From IMG/VR virus record IMGVR_UViG_3300003320_000853: a stretch of DNA of 64,000 nt; one strand, 5' to 3'. A program made the position numbers and the translations under genes. Source of the stretch: a virus (Duplodnaviria; Caudoviricetes). Below are positions 11,381 to 34,432 of the stretch, in pieces (the stretch's first letter is position 1; each line of letters begins with the position of its first letter). Under the pieces are notes generated by a model. It did no database searches, was not told where the DNA came from, and saw only the letters and a program-made list of their open reading frames with translations.

Positions 11381-11886
11381 ACGTAGGCATCATCGCGGCC
11401 ATGACCCCGGACGGCATCATCGGGGTCGACGGCACCCTCCCCTGGCACTACAAGGCCGACCTCCAGCGATTCAAGCGCCAGACGATGGGTAGCTCCATCG
11501 TCTTCGGGGCGCGCACCTACGAGACCCTTCCTGGCCGACTCACGGGCCGGGTCGTCGTCGCGGTGAGTCGAGAGAGGCACCGGACGTGGGATCACAATAA
11601 TTGGCCCGACGGGGTCTATGGGAGTCTCGGCGCTGCGATCCACTTCGGAAAAGTGAGGACGGGCACTGTGTGGATCGGCGGTGGAGGGGAAATCTACCGC
11701 CTCGCGCTCGAACAGGGACTCGTGGAATTCATCGATCTCACGATCGTCCCCCCCGTTGAGGTTTCTCCGACCTTCAAGGTCACGAGGTTCCCTGTGGATC
11801 TTCTTGTTGGGTGGTCTCTGATCGAAGAGGCCCCGAACCCTGATGATCCTCGACTCCTCCAACGACGATACGAGCGTCTCGCATAG
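11377..11886 (+). CDS. folA: dihydrofolate reductase
   Basis: IIG..GTLPWHYKADL.RFK..T, GARTYE, IGGGEIY. Confidence 0.9.
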   Translation: MNVGIIAAMTPDGIIGVDGTLPWHYKADLQRFKRQTMGSSIVFGARTYETLPGRLTGRVVVAVSRERHRTWDHNNWPDGVYGSLGAAIHFGKVRTGTVWIGGGGEIYRLALEQGLVEFIDLTIVPPVEVSPTFKVTRFPVDLLVGWSLIEEAPNPDDPRLLQRRYERLA

Positions 11887-13105
11887 GGTCTTCCGTCGCT
11901 TTCTTGCGGACATGATCGCGGACGTGCCCGTCCAGCTCGACAAATTCCGAAAGGAAATCGTCGAGCCCGCTCTCGCCAGAGAGAAACACGTCGAGGATGT
12001 GATGGTTCTGCTCCGAGCTTTCCTCAAGGCGCGTGAGGAAAGCAACGATGCCGAGAGCCAGCGTCTCTCCCAGGATCTCCGGCAAGAAGATCGGTTCATC
12101 ACCGAGGTGAAGCTTCATTTCAGCTCGGACTACTGGTATCGCAAGGGCAAGGTGATCGCCGCCCCGCTCTTCTGGGCGATCATTCAGCAATACGCGATGC
12201 CCCCGCGGGTGCGGACGGTTATCGAGGGCGCCTCTCGATTCTGGTCGAAGACCCGGATCATGGTGCGTCTCAAGGCCAAGCCTTACAGTGATGCCGGCCA
12301 CCTGGAGTATTGTGAGGCATACCTCAAGCTCTGCGGTGAACTGCGGAAGCAACTTGACGCGGGCCAGATGTCCGTCGACAAGGGACAGCTCCATTCATCT
12401 CCGGATGCGACGACGAAGCTCAAGGCTGGGAGTTTCACCCTCATCAACACGGGCGGCTTCGATGACGACTTGATGAAGGGCGTCGTCGAGACCGTGGAGA
12501 AGGCTGAGCACGCGATGCGAGGCATCGGTCTCGGCAAGGTATGCTACGGGGACATCATGGTCACGAAGACCATCAAGTCGAAGACCACCGTGGCGGCCTT
12601 CTATGTCCTCGTCAACGATGAGATGTTCGTTCGAGCGAACGTCAAGCCCCACTGGGACACGGTACAGGTGGTCTGCCATGAGCTCGCGCATCGCTACCAG
12701 AACAAATTCCTCAAGGGTAAGCAGCGCGAGATCGACGATATTTACCGGCAGATCAGCAGAGCGAGCCGGATCACCGAAGACTTCCCCATCGAGATGTATC
12801 CGATGGCTGGTGACACGATCGTCGATCCGAAGTATGGTGAGCTCCAGGTCGTCAAACCTGACTATTCCAAGCAGAGCGTCAAGCTGATCTCGGATCAGAT
12901 GCCGGGTGTCTCCCTGTCGCTCCCTCTGGCCGCTTGGCTCAAGGCCAAGCACATTCAATGGCCCCCTCACGACGACACCAAGCTTCAATGGGTGACGGGC
13001 TATGCCAAGAAGGATCCCGACGAGAACTTCGCAGAGATGGTGTCCTTTCATGCGCTCGGAAAGCTCCCGCCTCCGCTGATCTCTTTGCTCGAACCCCTGC
13101 TATGA
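11843..13105 (+). CDS. zincin-like metallopeptidase (HExxH) carrying RVxxRF signal
   Basis: VCHELAHRY and GYAKKDPDENFAE; N-terminal SHRVFRRFLA; start uncertain. Confidence 0.75.
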   Translation: MILDSSNDDTSVSHRVFRRFLADMIADVPVQLDKFRKEIVEPALAREKHVEDVMVLLRAFLKAREESNDAESQRLSQDLRQEDRFITEVKLHFSSDYWYRKGKVIAAPLFWAIIQQYAMPPRVRTVIEGASRFWSKTRIMVRLKAKPYSDAGHLEYCEAYLKLCGELRKQLDAGQMSVDKGQLHSSPDATTKLKAGSFTLINTGGFDDDLMKGVVETVEKAEHAMRGIGLGKVCYGDIMVTKTIKSKTTVAAFYVLVNDEMFVRANVKPHWDTVQVVCHELAHRYQNKFLKGKQREIDDIYRQISRASRITEDFPIEMYPMAGDTIVDPKYGELQVVKPDYSKQSVKLISDQMPGVSLSLPLAAWLKAKHIQWPPHDDTKLQWVTGYAKKDPDENFAEMVSFHALGKLPPPLISLLEPLL

Positions 13106-14317: not shown

Positions 14318-14956
14318 ATGCTCCCGGCGCTACCTGTGATCGATCTGCTCTCTGTTCAACCCGATGCGGACGGTTTGGACATCTGGGCCGAAGATTTCGA
14401 TCGGAATTCTGTTCCGGCAGGGATCGGCGTCTACTGCTTCTACGACCCTACCACAGGAATGCCCCACTACATCGGGTCAGGTTGCGCGATCCACGCGAAT
14501 GGGGTGGGGGTATGGCGTCGGATCCTCGACTATCGGAAAGGCCCCAAGCAGTTCGTAGCCGCGCACAACAGGCGGATCGGCGAGGCTGTTCGCACCCTGG
14601 GTCTCCGACTCAAGGTGTGGTTGGTGGCCAGCAACGGGGACGCCAGGAAGTACGAGATGGATGCCATCGCCAAGTACCGGCCGTCCCTCAATAAGGTTGG
14701 CGCAGATGACCCGACACAAACGCTCGAAGCGGAGCGAGCCCAGGCACAAGCCTGTCACGACCGATCTCGGGCCAAATGGCTTGGAGTCTACGATCCCAAC
14801 GCTGTGAAACCTTGTAGCCGGTGCAAGACACCCAAGAAGTGTTCGGAATACCGTCGTTGTGATGGTTTCCCATTCGGCGTTCACAGGGCCTGCAAAACTT
14901 GTGAGAAGCTATCGAGGGCACAGATCAAGCAGCACAGCGTGGAGGGCGCGGAATGA
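14318..14956 (+). CDS. GIY-YIG endonuclease with C-terminal Zn finger
   Basis: GVYCFY...HYIGSG, E....KY.PSLN, CSRC..CKTC. Confidence 0.75.
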   Translation: MLPALPVIDLLSVQPDADGLDIWAEDFDRNSVPAGIGVYCFYDPTTGMPHYIGSGCAIHANGVGVWRRILDYRKGPKQFVAAHNRRIGEAVRTLGLRLKVWLVASNGDARKYEMDAIAKYRPSLNKVGADDPTQTLEAERAQAQACHDRSRAKWLGVYDPNAVKPCSRCKTPKKCSEYRRCDGFPFGVHRACKTCEKLSRAQIKQHSVEGAE

Positions 14957-15990
14957 ATCTCGTCGCTCGTGTCGTGGCTCGCTTCCTCCAGGCCGAGGAC
15001 GGTGAGGAGAAGAAACCCGGTAAGGGAGGCGTCCCCGCACGTTGGCAGGAGTTCCTCGACAAGGTTCATCACGGGGGCAAGGAAAGGGTCAAGAATCCCA
15101 ACCCGAAGACCCAGAGCCGCCACAAGGAAGTCGCTTACAGTACCGCCCTCAAATACCCGAAGTTCTTCTTGGAGGCGATGAAGGAGTACAACGAGTGGGC
15201 CAAGAAGAACCCCAAGGACAAGGGTGAGGGCGGCGCCAAGGGGAAGGCTCCCGAGGAGAAGCCGAAGTCTAGGACGCCGCTTCCGGAGGCCATCAAGGAT
15301 GCGGTCACGCGCGTCTTCGGGGACAACCCTCCGAGCGTGGAAGACTTCGAGGAGATGTTCTCGGTCGGGAAGGACCACAAGACCAAGATCACGAAGATCC
15401 GTCACGTCAAGGGAGCGGTGACCAACGATTTCGACTTCGAGGGGGATCCCGCCGAGCATGTCGTTCGGGGATCGGTCGAGGTCAACTACGAGATCCATGA
15501 CAAGGACGGGAAGGTCATCGGCCACGGAGCCCAGAACTTCAATACTGTCGACGGGGAGAAAGTCGTTTTCAACCAAGAGGTGAAGCTCGACGAGAAGTCC
15601 CAGGGACAAGGTCTCGGGAAGACCATGTTGAAGAACAACTTCACGGCGTTCAAGAAGATGGGCGTCAAGAAGTCCATGCTGAACGCCGACTGGAAGGGGC
15701 GCTACGTTTGGCCGCGCATGGGGTATGACTCGGACCCCGATACCGTGAATGCGATGAAGGACGACCTCCGGAAGCATCTTCGCACCGAGGTTGGGATCTC
15801 GAAGGCGGCAGCGGACAAGATCCTCGATGCCTGCAAGACGCTCCACGACATTTCTTCGGTTCGCGTCGACGGAGAACACGCGGGGAAGGATTTCCTCTTG
15901 AGCAAGAGGGCGAGAGTGTTCAGCGCCAGCATCTCGTTGGACGATGACGACCCGGGCTTCAAAATTTTGAAGGAATACGTGGGACTATGA
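14953..15990 (+). CDS. GNAT-domain protein carrying RVxARF signal
   Basis: MNLVARVVARFLQA; acetyl-CoA loop QGQGLGK; GRYVWPRMGY. Confidence 0.75.
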   Translation: MNLVARVVARFLQAEDGEEKKPGKGGVPARWQEFLDKVHHGGKERVKNPNPKTQSRHKEVAYSTALKYPKFFLEAMKEYNEWAKKNPKDKGEGGAKGKAPEEKPKSRTPLPEAIKDAVTRVFGDNPPSVEDFEEMFSVGKDHKTKITKIRHVKGAVTNDFDFEGDPAEHVVRGSVEVNYEIHDKDGKVIGHGAQNFNTVDGEKVVFNQEVKLDEKSQGQGLGKTMLKNNFTAFKKMGVKKSMLNADWKGRYVWPRMGYDSDPDTVNAMKDDLRKHLRTEVGISKAAADKILDACKTLHDISSVRVDGEHAGKDFLLSKRARVFSASISLDDDDPGFKILKEYVGL

Positions 15991-16181
15991 AGGCGGATGG
16001 TGATCTCACGTCTGACTTGGAAGGCGAAGTCGACAAGGGCGACTTCCTTGAATTCGACAAGGAGGGGAACCCCAAGAAGGCCAGCCTCGCAGCCCGCGTA
16101 CTCGCTCGTTTCCAACAAGCTTCAACAGGAGATGCCCATGACCATCGCCGCCACGTGCTTCCTCCTCGCTCCGACCGATAA
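15987..16181 (+). CDS. small acidic protein with RVLARF motif
   Basis: ATGA overlap; SLAARVLARFQQAS. Confidence 0.55.
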   Translation: MKADGDLTSDLEGEVDKGDFLEFDKEGNPKKASLAARVLARFQQASTGDAHDHRRHVLPPRSDR

Positions 16182-16695
16182 GGCTCGGCTCAAGCTTCGC
16201 CGGTACAAGAGCGGCTCCGGGACGTGTGAGGGCGCCGATGCCTATCACAATGCGTCGACCCCATTTGCCGTCGTCCCGGCGAACCTCGACAAGCAAGGGT
16301 ACCTCCAGCCTTGCGACCAGCTCGCGCCCTCTCACGACGACCCCCGCTGGCCTACGAAGTGCGAGGGGTGCGCCTACGAATTCCAGGAGGAGGACAAGTG
16401 GCAGCTCTTCCAGGAGATGCTCTACGTGCGCCCGGACACGGGCGAAGTCTTCACCCTTCGGGAGGCGCCGGTCGGGGCCATGTGGGACGCCTTCTGGCTC
16501 CCCTGGAAGGGGTCGGACGGACGCTCCCTCGTGGTGATGACCCCCGCTGGCGAATGGTCGATCGACGGCCCCTCCGAAAGCGGGGGCTACTGGACGCGGA
16601 CGGGCGAGCCCCCCAGGATCTCGGTGCAGCCGTCGATCCACTTTCCGGGGAAGTACCACGGGTGGCTCACGAACGGCGTGCTCACGCCGTGTTGA
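16138..16695 (+). CDS. DUF6527-like protein
   Basis: WTRTGEPPRISVQPSI..YHGWLTNG; AGGAG SD. Confidence 0.7.
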   Translation: MTIAATCFLLAPTDKARLKLRRYKSGSGTCEGADAYHNASTPFAVVPANLDKQGYLQPCDQLAPSHDDPRWPTKCEGCAYEFQEEDKWQLFQEMLYVRPDTGEVFTLREAPVGAMWDAFWLPWKGSDGRSLVVMTPAGEWSIDGPSESGGYWTRTGEPPRISVQPSIHFPGKYHGWLTNGVLTPC

Positions 16696-17129: not shown

Positions 17130-18392
17130 ATGGCCGAGAAGCCCATCCCGAGGTGCGGGTTCTGTAAGAAACCGCGCAACGAAGTCAAGAACCTGGCAGG
17201 GGCCGGAGACGATGGCCCCCTCATCTGCGACAAGTGCGCTCGGCAGTTCACCCAGACGTTCGTCGAAGCCGAGCTGAAGAGGACCGAAGAGAAGCGCTTC
17301 GTTCTCCGCAAGCCGCGGGAGATCCGGGCCTTCCTCGACGACTACGTGATCGGGCAGGAGCGCGCCAAGCTCGATGTGAGCGTGGCGATCTACGAGCACT
17401 ACAAGCGCCGGAAGGCCGCCAAGGCCGGGGATGACCTCGGGGTCGAGATCCAGAAGAGCAACATGCTCGTCCTCGGACCAAGCGGCACGGGCAAGACGGA
17501 AATCTTCCGCACCGTGGCCCGCATGCTCGGGGTGCCTTTCTTCGTCGCCGACGCGACGAAGCTCACCCAGGCAGGGTACGTCGGGGACGACGTCGAGTCC
17601 ATCCTCCAGGGGCTCATCGCCGACGCAAACGGGGACATCGAGCGGGCGCAGTGGGGGATCATCCTCATCGACGAGATCGACAAGCTCGCCCGGAAGAGCG
17701 GGCGGGGCGCGACCGGCTACCGTGACGTGACCGGGGAGGGTGTTCAGCAGGCGCTGCTCAAGCTCCTCGAAGGCTCGCGCGTGAATGTCCCCCGGGGGAT
17801 GGGCAAGTCCATCATCGCCAACATGGAGTTCGACACGATCGACACGTCGAACATCCTCTTCATCGGAGCGGGCAGCTTCGCCGGGATCGAAGAGGCCATC
17901 AGCCGGCGCCTGAACAAAGATTCGGGCCTCGGGTTCGGCGCCGCCGACCGGAAGAAGGTCTCGAAGACGGACGCTTATCTCGCGGTCGAGGAAGACGACA
18001 TCCTCGACTTCGGGATGATCCCCGAGCTGATGGGCCGCATGCCGGTCATCACGACCACGATCGACCTCACCGAGGACGAGCTGATCGAGATCCTGACCAA
18101 GCCGAAGAACGCGATCATCAAGCAGTTCGTCGCGTCCTTCCGGATGGACAATATCGACCTCCAGTTCGACGAAGCTGCCCTCCGGGCCATCGCTCGCGAC
18201 GCGAAGAAGCGTCCCACCGGAGCCAGGGCGCTCCGGGCCATCGTCAAGCGGACCATCCGCCAGTTCAGCTACGACGCCCCGAGCGACCCGACCATCGGCT
18301 CGATCCGGGTCACAGAGGAGACCGTCACGAACGGCGCCGCGCCGGTCATTCTCCGCCGGGAGGCACCGGAGAAGCAGGAGGCGACCGGATGA
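17130..18392 (+). CDS. clpX: ATP-dependent Clp protease ATP-binding subunit ClpX
   Basis: C4 Zn domain, YVIGQ, GPSGTGKT, AGYVG, IDEIDK, GEGVQQALLK, LGF loop, TGARALR. Confidence 0.95.
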   Translation: MAEKPIPRCGFCKKPRNEVKNLAGAGDDGPLICDKCARQFTQTFVEAELKRTEEKRFVLRKPREIRAFLDDYVIGQERAKLDVSVAIYEHYKRRKAAKAGDDLGVEIQKSNMLVLGPSGTGKTEIFRTVARMLGVPFFVADATKLTQAGYVGDDVESILQGLIADANGDIERAQWGIILIDEIDKLARKSGRGATGYRDVTGEGVQQALLKLLEGSRVNVPRGMGKSIIANMEFDTIDTSNILFIGAGSFAGIEEAISRRLNKDSGLGFGAADRKKVSKTDAYLAVEEDDILDFGMIPELMGRMPVITTTIDLTEDELIEILTKPKNAIIKQFVASFRMDNIDLQFDEAALRAIARDAKKRPTGARALRAIVKRTIRQFSYDAPSDPTIGSIRVTEETVTNGAAPVILRREAPEKQEATG

Positions 18393-19431: not shown

Positions 19432-20010
19432 GTGAGTCCCAGCTCCTACAGGGTTGCCGCCCGTTTCATCGCCGAGCAGACCAAATCGGCCCCCAAGAAG
19501 GTCGACGACCTCTTCAAGGAAGTCAAGGACGGCAACCCGTCGTACTCCGACGAACAGGCGTGGGCCACAGCCTGGTCGATCTACTGCAAGCACGTCGACC
19601 CGGGCGGGTCCCACTGCAAGAAGTCTCCGGGGGAGTACCTCAAGGAGGCGTCCGCTCCTGTGGGATCCTGGGGCTCATACATCGAGAAGTGGTGCGAGGA
19701 TGTGCTCACGGCTCTTCAACGGAAGCTGACGCCGATCATGCGGGGGTGGAAGCCTACGGACATTCGTCGGAGCGGCTCAAGGCAGATCCTCGACTTCATC
19801 CGAGGGGATCGAGGGGATGGGACCCGGGAAGATGCCGGCGTCTCCCTTCAATGGGACGGATCCGGCATCGAGATCCGTGTGGATCTGGTCTCTCCGAAAT
19901 ATCACAACGTTGTGGTTCTATTGCAACAACGCGTTGCGTTCGATGAGACAGCCTTTGACGTATTGAAAAACGTCGAGCAAACATTCAAGTCGGAGATTTT
20001 TGCTCGATGA
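19432..20010 (+). CDS. RVxARF-signal protein
   Basis: GTG start, MSPSSYRVAARFIAE; NPSYSDEQAWATAWSIYCK. Confidence 0.7.
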   Translation: MSPSSYRVAARFIAEQTKSAPKKVDDLFKEVKDGNPSYSDEQAWATAWSIYCKHVDPGGSHCKKSPGEYLKEASAPVGSWGSYIEKWCEDVLTALQRKLTPIMRGWKPTDIRRSGSRQILDFIRGDRGDGTREDAGVSLQWDGSGIEIRVDLVSPKYHNVVVLLQQRVAFDETAFDVLKNVEQTFKSEIFAR

Positions 20011-20294
20011 GCACCCTCGAACAGCGGGTCGTTTCGCGCTTCATTGAAGCCGTCTCCAAGGACGATGCCGAGGAGATGGCTGAGTTCAAGAGGATGATCC
20101 ACGAGATGACCGAGGAGATGCTCGGCTTCGCGGAGGAGATGGATCGCTTCAAAGGCAAGATGGGTCGCTGGCGGGACAAGCTGCCGAAGAACGCCTTGTG
20201 GGAGGACGTACCGAACGACCTCGACGGCGCCATCAGCAGCATGGACAAGTCGGTGAGCAAGCTCCGTGGGTACGCTCACAAGTTGGGGACGTGA
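20007..20294 (+). CDS. RVxARF-signal helical protein
   Basis: MSTLEQRVVSRFIEA; ATGA overlap. Confidence 0.75.
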   Translation: MSTLEQRVVSRFIEAVSKDDAEEMAEFKRMIHEMTEEMLGFAEEMDRFKGKMGRWRDKLPKNALWEDVPNDLDGAISSMDKSVSKLRGYAHKLGT

Positions 20295-20299
20295 GGTCT

Positions 20300-21502
20300 A
20301 TGGACATCGCCAAGCGTGTTCTCGCCAGAGTCAAGGCCACCACCGACGCTACCGAGCGAACGCTCGAAGCTGCGGAGTTCATGAACGGTGATGGGGTTCA
20401 GCGGATCTCCATCGTCGAGAAGACCCATCCACGCGCAGGGGGAGATGTCTCCCACACGTACGTCCTTCGCACGTATGCCGACCATTTCGGGCTCAACGTG
20501 GCGTCGGAGACTTCGATCGGTAGCTGGCCGGCGGCAGCGTGGCTTGCGGATGCTCTGAGCCGGACGGCAGGCGCGATGCGGTCGGTCCGCCCGCTACCCG
20601 ATCCCGACTACTGGCCCGACATCTTCATCAAGAATGGGGAACAGCATCTCCGCCGGTGGGAGAAGGGTCAAGAGACGTCCTCCCAGTCGATCACGGCCCG
20701 CGTTCTCGCTCGTTACCGCCGATCGATGGAGCACCCGACCGAGAAGGACCGCAAGCAGTACCTTCACGATCACCCGCACGCCGATCCGGCGAACCACACG
20801 GTGGCGAAGCCTGGAGACCACGGTGGGGGGCACGGCGAGCATCACGAAAACAAGCCGAAGAAGTCCCTGAAAGAGCGTCTTCAGAGCATGGGCGAGAAGG
20901 CCAAGAGCTTCGTCAAGAACGCACCGGGCGACCTCAAGAAGTTCTTTGAGGACGAGGGTCATAGGCGCAAGGTGCTCCAGGGGGCTCACGAGAAGCTGGT
21001 GAAGGCCCCCGAGAAGCTCATCGCGAACGCCGTGCACACGGTGAAGCACGAGGTCAAGGAATTCAAGGAGGCCGGGGAGGGAGTCGCTGCCGTCATGAAG
21101 GGCGGCAAGATGAACGACCACCAGAAAAAGGCCCTCAAGACCGTGGGCTTCCATCTGGCTCTCACGGCAGTCGCCACAGTGCTGACGACCACGGGTGGTC
21201 CCCTGGCGGGTGCGGCCGTCTTCGGCAAGTCCATGGCGAAGCACGTCGCCATGAAGTCGGTGTCCAACGCGCTCGGACACCTCCACGTCCTCGAAGAAAT
21301 GGGGCATATCGGCCATGGGATCCATGGCGTGATGGAGCATCTCATGGACAAGCTCGCCACCGACGAGAAGGCGAACCCCGAGGATGTGATGGCTCAGTTC
21401 TTCGTCGCAGCGGCGGCGAAAGAGCTGGCGAACGTGGATGACGACACGATCGCCGACGCGATCGAGGGGATGGACAAGGCTGACGAGGCGCCGTCGGAGT
21501 AG
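20300..21502 (+). CDS. two-module RVxARF-signal protein, His-rich, with hydrophobic segment
   Basis: MDIAKRVLARVKA and internal ITARVLARYRRS; GAGG SD. Confidence 0.75.
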   Translation: MDIAKRVLARVKATTDATERTLEAAEFMNGDGVQRISIVEKTHPRAGGDVSHTYVLRTYADHFGLNVASETSIGSWPAAAWLADALSRTAGAMRSVRPLPDPDYWPDIFIKNGEQHLRRWEKGQETSSQSITARVLARYRRSMEHPTEKDRKQYLHDHPHADPANHTVAKPGDHGGGHGEHHENKPKKSLKERLQSMGEKAKSFVKNAPGDLKKFFEDEGHRRKVLQGAHEKLVKAPEKLIANAVHTVKHEVKEFKEAGEGVAAVMKGGKMNDHQKKALKTVGFHLALTAVATVLTTTGGPLAGAAVFGKSMAKHVAMKSVSNALGHLHVLEEMGHIGHGIHGVMEHLMDKLATDEKANPEDVMAQFFVAAAAKELANVDDDTIADAIEGMDKADEAPSE

Positions 21503-30529: not shown

Positions 30530-30805
30530 ATGGACATCGCTCGCCGGGTCGTTCTTCGAGTTCTTGGGCATCAGGTCGGGACGTTTACTCTCCCGAAAGA
30601 TCATCTCTTCGGGATGCGAGTACCCGATGGGGGGTCGAGCTGCGCCAAGTGCCTCTTCGTGAGCGACGACGGGAAGCACTGTGGTAACCCCTACTTCCAG
30701 GACTGGCGAAAATCTCTGAAGGAGAAGGATCCGAGCCTGCTCCCCCACCCGGCCGACAGCTATTGCTGCGACGTCTTTCAGGCGCAGGGGTCCGATGACA
30801 CCTAA
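30530..30805 (+). CDS. small Cys-rich protein with RVxxRV signal
   Basis: MDIARRVVLRV; CAKC..C..YCC. Confidence 0.7.
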   Translation: MDIARRVVLRVLGHQVGTFTLPKDHLFGMRVPDGGSSCAKCLFVSDDGKHCGNPYFQDWRKSLKEKDPSLLPHPADSYCCDVFQAQGSDDT

Positions 30806-32603
30806 GACCGCCAGCACGGTGCGCGTCCTCGTCCTCGTCGAGGACACCCGGAAGGCTCGGGCTCGCTGGCCGGCTCTCGATGAGCTTGTGGTTGCCGAGT
30901 TTATGGGAACCATCCCGCTCTACCGCATCTTCGACGAGAACGAGCTGCAACACATCCTTCGCTCGGGGAAGATCACGGGTGGGAACTACTCCGTTCCCGC
31001 CGAGCGCTCTTTCGGTGCTTCCTGGGGGTCGAACGTCACACAGGTGATCGAGTGGGGGAACCGACTCCGAGGGAAGAGACTCGGCTCGAACCTATACCTG
31101 GCCAAGATCGACGGCTACGGACACCGATTCTTGCACCTGAGCCCTGAGATCAAGTTCGACATCGACAATCCGGAACCGCAGAAGTCTATCGTGGATTCAT
31201 CCCGATTCAACGTAGGGCTCGGTTGCTCCGTTGCGGATGTCGGCACGAACGAAGCGGAGTTCTACGTCATCACGGAAGACCACCGGATGCACAGCCTCGA
31301 CGATCAGGAGCTCCGGGCCCTGAAGAAGGGATCTTCTGCGCAGCGGGTGGCGGCTCGATTCCTTCAAGCTCGGGATCAATATTTCGAGCTTGGGGACATT
31401 GTAACCTACGGGAAATACAAGAACCACCGTGGGAAGATCGTCAACTTCGGAAAGGACAAGTGGGGCAACCCCACGGTCGAGGTCGAGCCCATCCCCAAGG
31501 GTCGGAAGCAAAACAAGGTCTTCGGCCTGTTCAAGATTTGGAGGGCGGACGTGAAGGAGAAGGCGCTCGCGGAGCAGGCAGCGAAGGAAGGTCTGACGGC
31601 TCGGGTCATCGCTCGCTTCGAGCAGGCCAAGGGGACGCCGCGGGGCTGGGAGCACCGGAAGGAGAAGGACGACTTCACGGAGCAGAACATCCCTCCCGAG
31701 TACCTGGTTCTCTGGCGGAAGCTCAAGAACCGCTTCAAGGGCACCCCTCATGAGCGTGCCGAGCAATTCATGGAGTACGTGGAGGAGCATCCTGGGGAGA
31801 ACACAGAGGCCCTCCAAGAGAACGCCGACAAGGAAGTCGCCAAGATGACCCGGGAGTGGGCACAGAAGCACCGGGAACAGGTGAAGCTGGAGAAGGAGTG
31901 CGACAAGACCCAGACCAAGTACGAGGACGCTTGGTACAAGGAACAGGAGCGGGCCACCAAGGAAAAGAACAACCTCAAGCAGTTGCAGGAGAAGGCAGAA
32001 GGCGCTTGCAAGGCATGCCCCACCTGTGACGAGAGCGAGGGCCCGAGAGATTACCCCGACAGCGGCGGGCACGACGACAACATCCCGTTCGCAGCCTCCC
32101 GGGTTGCTGCAAGATTCGCGGCCCTCGAAGGTCTCCCCCGGGATCCTTCCCCGATCAGGGGGCTCGCGCCCGAGGACACGGACAACTACTGGGGCTGGCA
32201 GTACACCAGAGGTTTCCTCGACGCGGGACCGCTCCCGCACCTGGCGTCCCGCGTACGCTCCCGATTCCGGCGCGACAACGCCAGACGGACCGCGGCCATT
32301 GCAGGAGCGCTTCCGTTGCCTCCAGAGCTCCAGGGCCATCCGGCTCTCACGCAAGGGCTCACGACGATCGAGAATGCGAATGGCTTTCTCGGGACAATCG
32401 AGGATGAGGCCGGCACGTGGATCGCGTGGGTTGAGCCGAGCGGTGAAGCCGTGCTCTACACGAATCGGGAGCCTGACGGAGGAACCATCGGCGACGGCTA
32501 CGCCTTCCGACGGGATGACCTCGTCACGGCGCCGACGCTCACGGTGCCCAACCCTCTTCTCCGGCACGCACCTAGACAAGAACAAGGCCCTACCAACGGG
32601 TAG
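30795..32603 (+). CDS. polyprotein-like protein with four internal RVxxRF motifs
   Basis: QRVAARFLQA, ARVIARFEQA, SRVAARFAA and SRVRSRFRR separate five modules. Confidence 0.8.
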   Translation: MTPKTASTVRVLVLVEDTRKARARWPALDELVVAEFMGTIPLYRIFDENELQHILRSGKITGGNYSVPAERSFGASWGSNVTQVIEWGNRLRGKRLGSNLYLAKIDGYGHRFLHLSPEIKFDIDNPEPQKSIVDSSRFNVGLGCSVADVGTNEAEFYVITEDHRMHSLDDQELRALKKGSSAQRVAARFLQARDQYFELGDIVTYGKYKNHRGKIVNFGKDKWGNPTVEVEPIPKGRKQNKVFGLFKIWRADVKEKALAEQAAKEGLTARVIARFEQAKGTPRGWEHRKEKDDFTEQNIPPEYLVLWRKLKNRFKGTPHERAEQFMEYVEEHPGENTEALQENADKEVAKMTREWAQKHREQVKLEKECDKTQTKYEDAWYKEQERATKEKNNLKQLQEKAEGACKACPTCDESEGPRDYPDSGGHDDNIPFAASRVAARFAALEGLPRDPSPIRGLAPEDTDNYWGWQYTRGFLDAGPLPHLASRVRSRFRRDNARRTAAIAGALPLPPELQGHPALTQGLTTIENANGFLGTIEDEAGTWIAWVEPSGEAVLYTNREPDGGTIGDGYAFRRDDLVTAPTLTVPNPLLRHAPRQEQGPTNG

Positions 32604-32626: not shown

Positions 32627-33322
32627 ATGATCTGCAAAGTGTCGGAGTGTGGGCAGGGAGTGTGCGCGCAAGGTCTGTGTCGAAAGCACTACCGCAAGGC
32701 CCGCCTCGAAGGGACGATCGAGATCAAGTCCAAGCATGGGGGATGCAAGGCTCCTGAATGCCCGAAGCCCCACTACGCCAAGGGGTTCTGTGACGAGCAC
32801 TACTGGCTCCAAAAGAACAGCGGAGGCCTTGTCCGGACGCGAGCCCGTTCCGGATCGGTCAAACGAGCGAACGGGTACCGCTTCGTCGGCGTAGACGGGA
32901 AGATGGTACCCGAGCACCGACACCTGATGGAGATCCATCTCAGGAGGCCCCTCCAGAAAAACGAGGTGATCTCACACAAGAACGGGGATCCCTCGGACAA
33001 CCGCCTTGACAATCTGGAACTGTACGTTCCCGGAACTGGAGGGTATGTCGCCTGGAACGGGTACCGCATCCTCCACAAGGGCGGGTACGATATCCCCGAG
33101 CATCGGTACATCATGGAGCAGATCCTCGGGCGCCAGCTCCGAGCGGGAGAGAACGTCCATCACAAGAACGGGGATCGCCTGGACAACCGGCCGGAGAATT
33201 TGGAGCTGTGGTCGTGCCATCAGCCGAGCGGCCAACGGGTTGTCGACAAGGTTCAGTGGGCCCGCGAGATCCTTCGCCAGTACGAGACCGATCTGGAGAT
33301 CCTCATGCAGCTCGATCGGTAA
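32627..33322 (+). CDS. HNH endonuclease with tandem HNH domains
   Basis: EHR...HKNGD..DNR..NLEL twice; GLC..HY repeats. Confidence 0.9.
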   Translation: MICKVSECGQGVCAQGLCRKHYRKARLEGTIEIKSKHGGCKAPECPKPHYAKGFCDEHYWLQKNSGGLVRTRARSGSVKRANGYRFVGVDGKMVPEHRHLMEIHLRRPLQKNEVISHKNGDPSDNRLDNLELYVPGTGGYVAWNGYRILHKGGYDIPEHRYIMEQILGRQLRAGENVHHKNGDRLDNRPENLELWSCHQPSGQRVVDKVQWAREILRQYETDLEILMQLDR

Positions 33323-33346
33323 CCCTCTTCTAGGAGGCCGGAAGTG

Positions 33347-34432
33347 ATGAGCACGACCCAGGCTCTTCGCGTGCTGGCGAAGTATAAAGCCAAAAAGAAG
33401 GTCAAGAACAAGGACGGGGAGGAAACGACCGTCTACGAGTACAGCGACAAGCAGATCGCGAACCGGAACCGCGAGAAGGCGAAGCGCATCGAGAAGCTCC
33501 GCCACAAGATCGACGACGTTCGAGCCAAGGTCAAGAAGGACATGAAGTCCGCTGACCCCGAAAAGATGCTCACGGCGCTCGCGGTCGGGCTCATGGACCA
33601 CACGTTCGAACGGGTCGGGAACGAAGAGTCTGCCGACGAGGGCCATTTCGGGGTCACTGGATGGCAGCGGAAGCACGTCTCGTTCGGCAAGGATGTGACC
33701 ATCAAGTACGTCGGCAAGAGCGGCGTCAAGCACGAGAAGAAGGTCACCGACCCGGCCCTCAAGAAGGCGCTCCGGGACGCCTATGAAGCCAGCGACGACG
33801 AGGACGCGAGCCTCTTCGAGTACGAGGGGGGAAAGGTTACGGCCGAGAAAGTCAACGCCTACCTCAAGGAGTTCGACGTCACGGCGAAGGACATCCGCGG
33901 GATGCACGCCAACGTCGAGATGCAGGAGCGTCTCAAGGAAGTCCGGAAGAAGGGCGGCAAGCTCCCCGAGGACAAGAAGAAGCGAGAGAAGCAGCTCAAG
34001 GACGAGTTCAAGGAAGCGCTCGAAGGAGCCGCCGAGGCTGTGGGGCACGAACCCTCGACGCTCAAGAGCCAGTACCTCGTCCCCGGCCTGGAGGAGTCGT
34101 ACCTCAAGGATGGGACGGTCGTCGACAAGCTCTCCCATCGCGTCCTGGCGCGTTTCCTGGCGGCGACGCAGATTGCCTATGGGCCAGCGGGCGCATGCCT
34201 CACCTTCCAGGCAGACTTCCCCCTGACCACCCCGTGCGAGAAGTGTGGGGCAGATGCGTCCCTTCACGTCACGCTGTCCGAAGATGGCCCGACTCTGGAG
34301 ACGTACAGGCCAGAGTACGATGCAGCCGTTGCTCGGGGTTGGGTCGATCCCGTGGGCCACGACCTTGCGGCGTTCGCGACCTACATTTGCCCGGAATGTT
34401 ACGCGGCGACGACACTCTGGAATCAGGCGTGA
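33347..34432 (+). CDS. DNA topoisomerase IB catalytic domain fused via RVLARF to Zn-finger module
   Basis: ERVGNE, YVGKSGV, TAKDIR, VGH, catalytic Tyr in SQYL; C-terminal CEKC..CPEC. Confidence 0.88.
   Translation: MSTTQALRVLAKYKAKKKVKNKDGEETTVYEYSDKQIANRNREKAKRIEKLRHKIDDVRAKVKKDMKSADPEKMLTALAVGLMDHTFERVGNEESADEGHFGVTGWQRKHVSFGKDVTIKYVGKSGVKHEKKVTDPALKKALRDAYEASDDEDASLFEYEGGKVTAEKVNAYLKEFDVTAKDIRGMHANVEMQERLKEVRKKGGKLPEDKKKREKQLKDEFKEALEGAAEAVGHEPSTLKSQYLVPGLEESYLKDGTVVDKLSHRVLARFLAATQIAYGPAGACLTFQADFPLTTPCEKCGADASLHVTLSEDGPTLETYRPEYDAAVARGWVDPVGHDLAAFATYICPECYAATTLWNQA

Follow-up and report, generated by a model that had tools for sequence, protein, structure and literature searches.

Large chains of effector-type domains are known from phages and conjugative elements as polyvalent proteins (Iyer, Burroughs, Anand, de Souza and Aravind, 2017; PMC5512222). 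Their domains include ADP-ribosyltransferase (ART), GNAT, peptidase, nucleotide-signal and RNA-acting enzymes, and the proposal is that these proteins are packaged in the head, enter the host with the DNA and in some cases undergo proteolytic processing. [quoted passage not shown]

We analysed a window, a stretch of 64,000 nucleotides, from an uncultured huge phage with a genome of ~377 kb, and found in it a chain of five modules, encoded by an ORF of 602 aa at 30795..32603 (+). The modules evolve independently and are here joined in frame. The short helix repeated along the ORF, below called the tag, is portable, and across a huge-phage clade the modules exist as free proteins and have been recombined in many orders and with many enzymes.

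The five-module ORF and its tags

The ORF codes like a real gene, with GC of 0.63, 0.45 and 0.78 at codon positions 1, 2 and 3. Its exact architecture was seen in no other protein searched; the best hit in homology searches covered at most 44% of the 602-aa query. With the whole protein, Pfam yielded no family and PHROGs only matches at E 0.006 and 0.077; tblastn against GenBank phages gave no match, and exact peptide patterns confirmed none in IMG/VR. Foldseek searches of PDB and BFVD gave nothing at E<=0.001. A literature search for the tag strings found no papers.

Four R-V-x-x-R-F motifs had been predicted to punctuate the ORF, and all four were confirmed, at nt 31344, 31602, 32100 and 32250 (aa 184, 270, 436 and 486). 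When the protein's own residues are shuffled, 0.007 copies per protein are expected by chance, and more than one copy was seen in 0 of 200,000 shuffles. Arg and Val codons differ among these four copies and seven more copies in other ORFs of the window, so the motif is conserved at the protein level, not as a DNA repeat; a DNA-level repeat or recombination site is thereby ruled out as explanation of the tag. RVxxRF forms the core of a basic, amphipathic helix of 12 residues, with the consensus L-A-x-R-V-A-A-R-[FY]-L-x-A; its aromatic position is F, Y, H or W depending on the lineage. Its conserved positions (-3, 0, 1, 4, 5 and 8) have helical periodicity, and AF2 predicts the helices outside domains.

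Tag 1 (31335..31370 (+), aa 181-192, core RVAARF at 184-189) lies in a helix of aa 181-196 where pLDDT dips to 68-73. Tag 2 (31593..31628 (+), aa 267-278, core RVIARF at 270-275) was placed by motif scan, homologue alignment and AlphaFold. Tag 3 (32091..32126 (+), aa 433-444, core RVAARF at 436-441) comes directly after ...IPF-AAS, and tag 4 (32241..32276 (+), aa 483-494, core RVRSRF at 486-491) is an isolated helix of low confidence. That the motifs mark module boundaries, as originally proposed, is borne out in two ways: BLAST breakpoints against ~300 relatives cluster at aa 170-195, 250-290, 410-450 and 480-500, and in the AlphaFold models each of the four motifs falls in a connecting helix of low confidence that lies outside the folded parts. 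The modules are mutually unrelated; modules 2-5 are each preceded by a tag and module 1 is not. We considered and dropped the idea that the modules are translated independently: in the 20 codons before tag 3 and before tag 4 there is no in-frame ATG, GTG or TTG, and the sole internal start candidates are ATG 31287, with no clear SD, and GTG 31551, with GGAGG 7 nt upstream.

Modules, free forms and shuffled orders

Module 1 (30795..31334 (+), aa 1-180) is an alpha/beta domain predicted to have an ART-superfamily fold (AF2 model, pLDDT 91.5). In a VIA search of 48,161 chains the top matches over aa 2-185 were all ART-superfamily members, from several clades and at modest Z (4.5-6.6); these include Tpt1 (6.6 and 6.5), EcPltA (6.1), Scabin (5.9), LT (5.8) and DarT (5.2), and other matches were to CC0527, TreX and pertussis toxin. 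The Atlas structure search returned mainly DarT, DUF4433, DUF952, Tox-ART-HYD1 and RES clusters (TM 0.42-0.54), together with three unnamed clusters and one DUF2489 cluster. Because no single hit reaches Z 8, the ART call rests on the consistency of the hits. Pfam contained no ART family for the ORF or for any of the 44 members of the module 1 family, and the family profile gave nothing at E<=10 against PDB sequences. To judge by these searches, module 1 matches no known sequence family and would be a new ART-fold family.

The family conserves Y43, R44, D47, E50, E70, R71, S76, W77, R92, R95 and H114; R44 is present in 44/44 sequences and Y43 and S76 each in 40/44. Positions 153 and 155 are [DE] in 37/44 and 30/44 relatives respectively, mostly D, and read E-A-E in the 602-aa protein. 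The original prediction had quoted three strings, all present (L42-Y43-R44, A75-S76-W77-G78-S79 and N152-E-A-E-F-Y-V158), and had likened them to the R-S-ExE pattern of ART enzymes. The predicted fold and the nearly invariant Y-R and S uphold that likeness, whereas ExE holds family-wide only as [DE]-x-[DE], and no ART sequence family was matched. The candidate catalytic residues follow, along the secondary structure, the order of an ART triad (R-S-E or H-Y-E).

Module 2 (31371..31592 (+), aa 193-266) is predicted to be a small five-stranded beta barrel of the KOW/SH3/Tudor-like kind plus a helix, with strands at aa 202-244 (AF2, pLDDT 86-95). VIA matched it to SH3, Tudor, chromo and KOW domains (Spt5, NusG, RfaH) at Z 4.4-5.4 over 43-59 residues. 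These matches support the KOW/SH3 barrel that had been proposed from the string GDIVTYGKYKNHRGKIV, present at aa 201-217; the Pfam KOW match is sub-threshold (PF00467, E 0.19; best family member 0.014; all under the curated 22.3-bit cut-off). Module 2 is the most widespread of the five, with >120 stand-alone, tag-first homologues (83-130 aa) and occurrences at 39 IMG/VR loci, whose contigs measure 18-619 kb and in 30 cases exceed 100 kb.

Module 3 (31629..32090 (+), aa 279-432) is helical. Its AlphaFold model, with a 75-residue helix at aa 333-407, agrees with the coiled coil expected from the charged sequence, and a VIA search with the M3-M5 model gave generic coiled coils only; an OB-fold ssDNA-binding body was not found in the all-helical model. 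The long helix is followed by a disordered C-x2-C-P-T-C stretch and then by the acidic tail DDNIPF (nt 32073-32090, aa 427-432). The 13 free-standing homologues whose ends are natural all stop at PF or PFA, and in all 13 an acidic stretch ending D-D/E-x-I/V-P-F stands at the free C-terminus; this stretch is internal in the 602-aa ORF. Alignment A3 has no variation at the P of PF, and fusions too keep this P-F invariant, right before the tag. The ensuing joint, PFAAS plus tag, is common to the 602-aa ORF and ten M3-topoisomerase IB fusions.

Module 4 (32127..32240 (+), aa 445-482) is a short unit of low-confidence prediction that contains W-G-W-Q-Y...G-F-L-D; one clear homologue was found, in an M2-tag-M4 protein (P0063). 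Module 5 (32277..32603 (+), aa 495-602), a small beta-containing unit recognised from homologues and a low-confidence AlphaFold model, is rare: it was found in four proteins (P0010, P0056, P0267 and P0274) and at three loci (L022, L024 and L027), where it lies just upstream of topoisomerase IB. The models of both modules were too poor for structure search, and a region search for M4 or M5 as short free proteins gave nothing at E<=0.001.

Modules 1, 2 and 3 also occur as free proteins, with the start pattern M-x(3-8)-tag, which agrees with the suggestion that the ORF concatenates formerly separate small genes. We found the orders M2-M1, M5-M3, M3-M2, M2-M5 and M2-M4 in relatives, so that homologues are not always collinear full-length proteins. 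Fusions of these modules with topoisomerase IB, HD, NUDIX, GNAT and RNA-ligase domains occur as well, and the ORFs reach 3133 codons. The tag precedes 93/117 N-terminal and 39/59 internal M2 copies and 24/33 M3 copies, and 13/14 internal M1 copies elsewhere have none. Internal tags are retained in 10/10 aligned M3-topoisomerase IB fusions (53-66% identity to the query over M3) and decayed in several other proteins (e.g. P0019, P0020). Tagged partners are effector-like: ART fold, GNAT, NUDIX, HD, 2H/RNA ligase, topoisomerase IB, a poly(A)-polymerase-like nucleotidyltransferase and a metallopeptidase-like protein. The syntenic locus, flanked by the genes for DHH phosphoesterase and Dam, is a hot spot for module recombination, and its architectures turn over quickly. 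Since relatives have these modules either as individual tagged proteins or in different orders, we view this as a natural plug-and-play assembly system for cargo, and the cargo so assembled is probably virion-delivered.

Tagged genes and the role of the tag

We examined the other genes of the window for the tag. An HNH endonuclease gene (32627..33322 (+); Pfam HNH_3 1.2e-18, phrog_20891 1e-32) lies between the 602-aa ORF and a topoisomerase IB gene (33344..34432 (+); profile match and motif scan). The N-terminal region of the topoisomerase bears a variant of the tag (RVLAKY at 33368), and an internal tag (RVLARF at 34139) precedes a Cys4 module; many relatives have the topoisomerase fused behind module 3 or module 5. 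Another tagged gene (11843..13105 (+), tag at aa 15) encodes a putative zinc metallopeptidase with HELAH...ENFAE (weak Peptidase_Mx1 match, E 0.12), and a homologue of this protein lies in frame directly downstream of M2 in 467-codon tagged ORFs at two loci (L006 and L032). The protein at 14953..15990 (+) has an N-terminal tag and a weak GNAT-like match (motif scan and profile search). The signal-bearing small genes that the original prediction placed at 19432-21502 proved by motif scan to be three tagged genes (19432..21502 (+): 19432-20010, 20007-20294 and 20294-21502). Among the tagged genes stands one for a phage ClpX unfoldase (17130..18392 (+)) with a zinc finger and an AAA+ domain; ClpX itself is untagged, as are PolA, ThyA, DHH and Dam.

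The explanation that we favour, at a probability of about 0.5, is that the tag is of capsid-targeting type and marks injected effector cargo, possibly cut at the tags. The tagged cargo repertoire argues for packaging, as it mirrors T4 Alt and the CTS-bearing internal proteins (PMC9026906) and the injected polyvalent proteins (PMC5512222). In the whole 350-kb genome of one relative (G004), 18 genes match the tag pattern, where ~5 are expected by chance. Its 17.6-kb head module (TerL, portal, protease and MCP) has 4-5 of these genes, between portal and maturation protease and next to TerL, against ~0.32 expected, an enrichment with P ~3e-4 to 2e-5 that comes from this one relative and a crude gene caller. 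Against packaging count the position of many tagged genes, including the 602-aa ORF, far from head genes, and the missing tag of module 1 in this ORF and of 13/14 internal M1 copies elsewhere.

On this packaging reading the tag helix would be an address, recognised in the head during its assembly by one putative partner common to all tagged proteins. Its role would resemble that of the T4 capsid-targeting sequence: tagged proteins would be loaded into the capsid and enter the host along with the DNA as early effectors, and a chain of modules would be a compact way to load several cargos together. Less firmly, the head maturation protease or the tagged zinc peptidase may cleave the chain at the tags or beside them; this would regenerate free modules and give module 3 back its free ...IPF end. 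Cleavage is hinted at because 13/13 free M3 proteins end in PF or PFA and P-F is invariant before the tag in fusions. Against it count the form of the tag, a long helix and not a short extended protease site, and the tag alignment, in which no conserved cleavage-type residue (T4 or phiKZ x-E site) was found after the tag. Searches of five relatives for prohead proteases of T4 type (PF03420, for which control genomes were blank too) and of HK97 type (PF04586) gave no match; a PHROG head maturation protease was found in G004 (E 1.5e-8). More tentatively, one 12-residue helix might serve as a universal cargo connector, being at once head address, protease separation mark and in-frame splice joint, and ORFs of 600 to >3000 codons might be disposable cartridges of injected counter-defence enzymes; this wider scheme we consider possible but doubtful.

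The ClpX gene is a candidate for another reader of the tag. The tag would then be a docking or recognition peptide for the phage ClpX or another AAA+ machine, and tagged proteins would be its substrates or adaptor-delivered clients, meant for timed unfolding, degradation with host ClpP or translocation, with a multi-tag chain as a multivalent client. Among the signals that ClpX is known to recognise are short N-terminal peptides, and the SspB adaptor docks on the zinc-finger domain of ClpX via a short LRVVK peptide; the tag spacing, R-V-x-x-R-F, is however unlike LRVVK. ClpX of jumbo phages has been suggested to translocate unfolded proteins or to aid virion assembly (PMC7824862). The tagged-gene cluster surrounds the ClpX gene in the window, where it lies mid-run, and again in G004 (tagged genes at 67-76.6 kb, ClpX at 71.3-72.6 kb), and ClpX was found in 5/5 relatives searched, but co-occurrence inside a single clade does not discriminate between the readings. 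Phage ClpP is present in 1/5 relatives only, and a ClpX signal would leave the head-module enrichment of tagged genes unexplained; we hold this role to be unlikely.

The tag might also have neither a dedicated reader nor a part in processing. The ORF would then encode one multidomain protein whose tags are inherited N-terminal helices, now inert linkers, and tag similarity would mainly reflect in-frame microhomology for shuffling, as in the joints of polymorphic toxin cassettes. The PFAAS-plus-tag joint is alike before topoisomerase IB or M4, suggesting that the downstream module was exchanged at the tag, and the fast turnover of architectures, the HNH endonuclease genes that adjoin tagged modules (in the window and at loci L014 and L035) and the decay of several internal tags (P0019, P0020) all fit such a history. 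Yet, with the codon differences between tag copies, identity at the DNA level is too low and extends over too short a stretch for ordinary homologous recombination. Diverged fusions conserve their internal tags, and the persistence of a 12-residue pattern over phages of 44-68% GC, in hundreds of proteins that are unrelated, implies that selection maintains a function at the protein level; inert linkers are rather unlikely. We give still less credence to an address for some phage-made site other than the capsid, such as a replication compartment, a condensate or a membrane. Tagged proteins that act on nucleic acids, among them topoisomerase IB, RNA-repair-type domains and the KOW barrel, would suit such a destination, as would a basic amphipathic helix, but two invariant Arg at fixed spacing argue for protein recognition over lipid binding, the head module is enriched in tagged genes, and no compartment-forming gene was recognised, though without a dedicated search for one.

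If the tag is an address label as in the packaging reading, it would yield a simple sequence rule by which to list the proteins delivered by a large, uncultured clade of phages of 100-600 kb, and a ready-made handle for loading foreign proteins into huge-phage capsids, a use to which the T4 CTS has been put. The chain shows phage effector arsenals evolving via in-frame shuffling at a defined joint. The ORF also supplies what would be a new ART-fold family and a very common protein with a predicted KOW-like barrel. Module 3, a non-OB protein with what looks by sequence like an SSB-type tail, could recruit or jam host SSB-interacting enzymes.

Comparison with described systems

Two modules resemble described proteins in part. 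The predicted fold of module 1 is that of cholera-toxin-group (R-S-E) and Tpt1/DarT-type ART enzymes, and its phi-Y-R in the first core strand, G-A-S-W before a helix and acidic-x-acidic before a later strand come in the ART order of R, S-T-S and E-x-E; unlike the described ART families, it has no sequence-profile match to any of them, and its acidic pair is mostly D-x-D. Free module 3 ends in a disordered acidic [DE]-x-[IV]-P-F, like the bacterial SSB tip (D-D-D-I-P-F) and the acidic tail of T7 gp2.5. Its body, however, is predicted to be a helical coiled coil and not an OB fold, and in the 602-aa ORF DDNIPF is internal, followed by AAS and the tag, and would become a free end there only upon cleavage.

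Like the viral polyproteins of picornaviruses and potyviruses and retroviral Gag-Pol, and like DarA/DdrB of phage P1, the ORF combines several independently functional units of which free versions exist; in the case of the 602-aa chain the one pointer to processing is the conserved internal ...PF end of module 3. The tag resembles the T4 CTS in being a short portable N-terminal peptide common to unrelated, fast-evolving proteins. It differs in its unrelated sequence, an Arg-containing helix of 12 residues that also occurs internally, up to four per chain, and in lacking an [LI]-x-E-type site after it. Pfam finds none of the hallmark domains of polyvalent proteins (MuF, MPTase-PolyVal, DarB-type) in the 602-aa ORF, and the accessible portion of their description (PMC5512222) contains neither a delimiter of the tag type, forming the N-terminus of free forms, nor the word 'linker'. 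What the ORF shares with the polyvalent proteins is its construction as a large phage chain of diverse effector-type domains in highly variable order.

Motifs and modules of the ORF at 30795-32603

The window is densely coding and phage-like, with a predominant plus strand, 62% GC, and genes for PolA, thymidylate synthase, NT5C, dNMP kinase, AAA+ proteins, ClpX, DHH, Dam, HNH and topoisomerase IB. The ORF at 30795-32603 (+) has 602 open codons with a third-position GC of 0.78, typical of a real gene; in the protein database its exact product occurs on one contig only, of 376,986 bp. The original prediction placed R-V-x-x-R-F motifs in this ORF, and they are found as exact matches at aa 184, 270, 436 and 486. 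Shuffling the protein's own residues gives an expectation of 0.007 copies, and two copies arose in none of 200,000 shuffles; the motif-punctuated ORF is a real observation. The Arg and Val codons vary among the copies, so it is the peptide that is conserved, not the DNA. An in-frame GTG at 31551 (V253), 17 codons ahead of tag 2 and with GGAGG 7 nt upstream, could permit separate translation of modules 3-5; the GGAGG is simply the codons of the conserved W-R in IWRADV. A 91-aa Cys-rich gene at 30530-30805 overlaps the start of the ORF by 11 nt; a degenerate tag (MDIARRVVLRV) opens its product, and L014, an IMG/VR locus with module 2, encodes a homologue of 55% identity.

The AlphaFold model of aa 1-270 (100 aligned sequences, mean pLDDT 91.5) has a compact alpha/beta domain at aa 8-167, tag 1 inside a connecting helix (181-196) where pLDDT dips to 68-73, a beta barrel at aa 202-244, and, continuing into tag 2, a helix at 251-269. 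In the model of aa 261-602, module 3 forms confident helices to aa 407, one of them of 75 residues, followed by a disordered segment with C-x2-C-P-T-C and DDNIPF; tag 3 is a short helix predicted with low confidence, the confidence for module 4 is also low, tag 4 forms another, isolated helix and module 5 has a small three-stranded element. No tag lies within a folded domain, so on structural grounds the proposed division of the ORF into modules by the motifs stands. BLAST breakpoints agree independently: segment ends against about 300 relatives pile up sharply at aa 0-10, 170-195, 250-290, 410-450 and 480-500.

Searches of Pfam, PHROGs and PDB sequences gave no match for module 1. The best structural alignments of its model are to ADP-ribosyltransferase (ART) superfamily members from many clades: Tpt1 (Z 6.6, 6.5 and 6.4), EcPltA (6.1), CC0527 and TreX (both 6.0), Scabin (5.9) and LT (5.8); TreTu, pertussis toxin, DarT, Tne2 and pierisin were among the others. 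With Z values no more than modest, the fold call is based on the consistency of the matches; a structure search of the ESM Atlas found DarT, DUF4433, DUF952, Tox-ART-HYD1 and RES. The residues invariant in the family include Y43-R44, on a core strand, S76, part of G-A-S-W ahead of a helix, and R71, R92, R95 and H114. The R and S of the proposed R-S-ExE pattern are thus conserved; its last element, E153-x-E155, is [DE]-x-[DE] in the family, mostly D. This residue pattern is compatible with a putative R-S-E-type ART site.

A KOW/SH3 barrel had been proposed for module 2, and structure search with the predicted model bears this out, with SH3/Tudor/KOW-like barrels at Z 4.4-5.4; the sequence motif G-D-x-V-x-Y-G-K-Y-K-N-H-x-G is KOW-like, scoring under the Pfam threshold. 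Acidic tails are common at the ends of free module 2 copies, and many among P0083-P0147, homologous proteins consisting of free module 2, are strongly acidic there (...DDGDHDFDE, ...DEDDDDE, ...DDEEDDDDF); such a combination of small basic barrel and acidic tail recalls DNA-binding or internal head proteins. Module 3 is helical in the predicted model. Every one of the 13 free copies that have a natural end closes with [DE]-x-[IV]-P-F or P-F-A, an ending similar to the SSB C-terminal tip. Fusions retain this P-F, there followed by A-A-S and then the tag, and the P shows no variation in the alignment. Modules 4 and 5 are rare, with poor models.

Free modules, shuffled orders and the topoisomerase IB locus

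A search for proteins of similar length gave 55 matches, each with query coverage of at most 44% and carrying one or two modules in other contexts, on contigs up to 570 kb; the fusion partners were topoisomerase IB, HD, NUDIX, GNAT, and RNA-ligase or tRNA-ligase-type domains. Among shorter proteins there were 428 matches. Module 2 stands alone in more than 120 of the 174 mapped proteins, its free form being 83-130 aa long, and modules 1 and 3 also occur as free proteins; the typical start is M-x(3-8)-R-V-A-A-R-F/Y. The orders M2-M1, M5-M3, M3-M2, M2-M5 and M2-M4 were also seen. An exhaustive HMMER search of 1.8 billion representatives found 759 relatives, some of 1100-2570 aa, the largest combining topoisomerase IB with a poly(A)-polymerase-type head domain, 2'-5' RNA-ligase (2H), NUDIX and GNAT. 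Since modules occur free and in shuffled orders, the homologues are not always collinear and full length, and free tag-first modules support the view of the ORF as a fusion of formerly separate small genes; the original interpretation is largely right. The tag precedes module 2 in 93 of 117 N-terminal and 39 of 59 internal copies, module 3 in 24 of 33 copies, and module 1 in 26 of 36 N-terminal copies versus 1 of 14 internal ones, a pattern that fits the untagged module 1 heading this ORF.

In IMG/VR, module 2 was found in 39 loci; their contigs are 18-619 kb long, 30 exceeding 100 kb, with 44-68% GC. Seven loci keep the window's gene order, from DHH through variable tagged ORFs to topoisomerase IB and then Dam on the opposite strand, and the tagged ORFs differ every time in number, length and content. 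For the window's glycosyltransferase gene, between topoisomerase IB and Dam, a homologue was found in L003 only. Module 2 and topoisomerase IB share single open frames of 2026-3133 codons in five loci (L015, L018, L023, L029 and L035), and in L022 module 5 is joined directly ahead of tag and topoisomerase IB in one ORF; in the window an HNH endonuclease gene (32627-33322) lies between the two, which are separate genes. Two other huge phages have HNH homologues (33-43% identity) directly ahead of module 2, in L014 (9456-9965) and L035 (9526-9999), and mobile endonucleases may drive rearrangements at this locus.

The tag as a peptide

Window ORFs starting at 11843, 14953, 19432 and 20007 have the tag near the N-terminus. 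Variants begin the ORF at 20294, which also has an internal copy, and the topoisomerase IB gene (RVLAKY), in which an internal tag at 34139 separates the catalytic core from a Cys4 module. The region 15987-16695 is a probable frameshifted or mis-assembled gene: from the ATG at 15987 runs an acidic protein-like frame with a perfect tag, ASLAARVLARFQQAS, at 16095 and a stop at 16181, while the annotated-looking frame 15997-16695, with a DUF6527-like C-terminus, has R/S/T-rich first 30 codons of low GC3 (0.63) and takes on a coding appearance only at about 16087. A +1 shift at around 16100-16180 would bring both frames together.

The consensus drawn from 144 copies in relatives reads L(-3)-A(-2)-x-R-V-A-A-R-[Y/F]-L-x-A(+8), in which R0 and R4 (numbered from the first core Arg) are set by the search pattern; V is present in 90%, Y, F, H or W fills the aromatic position, and conservation recurs with the period of a helix. 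A literature search found no paper containing the tag strings. Hundreds of unrelated proteins carry the tag, in phages of widely differing GC content. It is selected as a peptide and has the shape of a docking helix; with its wide spread, this makes one common reader the simplest reading.

Tagged genes at the head module and possible readers

For an independent test of the capsid idea we fetched the whole 350,469-bp genome of a relative, G004 (ClpX 69% and topoisomerase IB 71% identical to the window's), and called 435 genes with a simple GC3-based caller. The tag pattern was present in 18 of these, against about 5 expected by chance, grouped at three places: at the topoisomerase locus, around ClpX, and in the head module. 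The last, at 190-206.5 kb, encodes TerL, portal, head maturation protease and major head protein (PHROGs), and has 4-5 tagged genes versus 0.32 expected (P ~3e-4 to 2e-5, in this one relative). Three of these lie between portal and protease, a stretch that usually codes for ejection proteins and minor components of the head. Inside the head module, an endonuclease VII gene (PF02945, 6e-15) at 196460-196900 (L058:6463-6900:-, L058 being our handle for this stretch) also lies between portal and maturation protease and adjoins tagged small genes. The window's PolA, ThyA, DHH, Dam and ClpX have no tag.

The main rival is that the tag is a docking peptide for ClpX as candidate reader. ClpX lies among tagged genes in both the window and G004 and is encoded in five of five relatives, but a phage ClpP is found in only one of them (G003:C1:274091-274564, a ClpP-family protease gene). 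In relatives G002 (C1:215750-218074) and G005 (C1:280070-282382) ClpX lies within open frames of 777-781 aa, its match to the window ClpX being split after residue ~120 by an insert of ~350 aa that may be an intein. Alternatively, tags could be mere linkers and recombination joints without any reader. Downstream modules have apparently been exchanged at the tag, because an identical PFAAS+tag joint precedes either topoisomerase IB or module 4; the codon diversity among tag copies and the conservation of internal tags in diverged fusions nevertheless weaken this explanation.

For processing of the chain there is an indirect hint, in that a P-F of C-terminal type is under selection at an internal joint; candidate proteases would be the head maturation protease and the window's tagged HExxH protein. 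This 420-aa product of 11843-13105, with HELAH and a C-terminal ENFAE motif, is by its sequence probably a zincin-type metallopeptidase, matching Peptidase_Mx1 weakly (E 0.12). Its domain follows module 2 and a second tag in one 467-codon ORF in L006 (10643-11365) and L032 (10616-11344), and in L014 (10580-11464) its place is just downstream of module 2.

A putative system like the T4 CTS with Alt and the internal proteins, and like the injected polyvalent proteins (Iyer et al.), fits three observations: tagged genes are enriched at the head module, tagged domains are effector-like, and the window's PolA, ThyA, DHH, Dam and ClpX are untagged. The ORF at 30795-32603 contributes the internal repeated use of the tag, the evidence of shuffling and the SSB-tail joint. 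The novelty against described systems lies in one conserved helical delimiter with two uses, as the N-terminal tag of free putative cargo and as the joint of multi-cargo chains.
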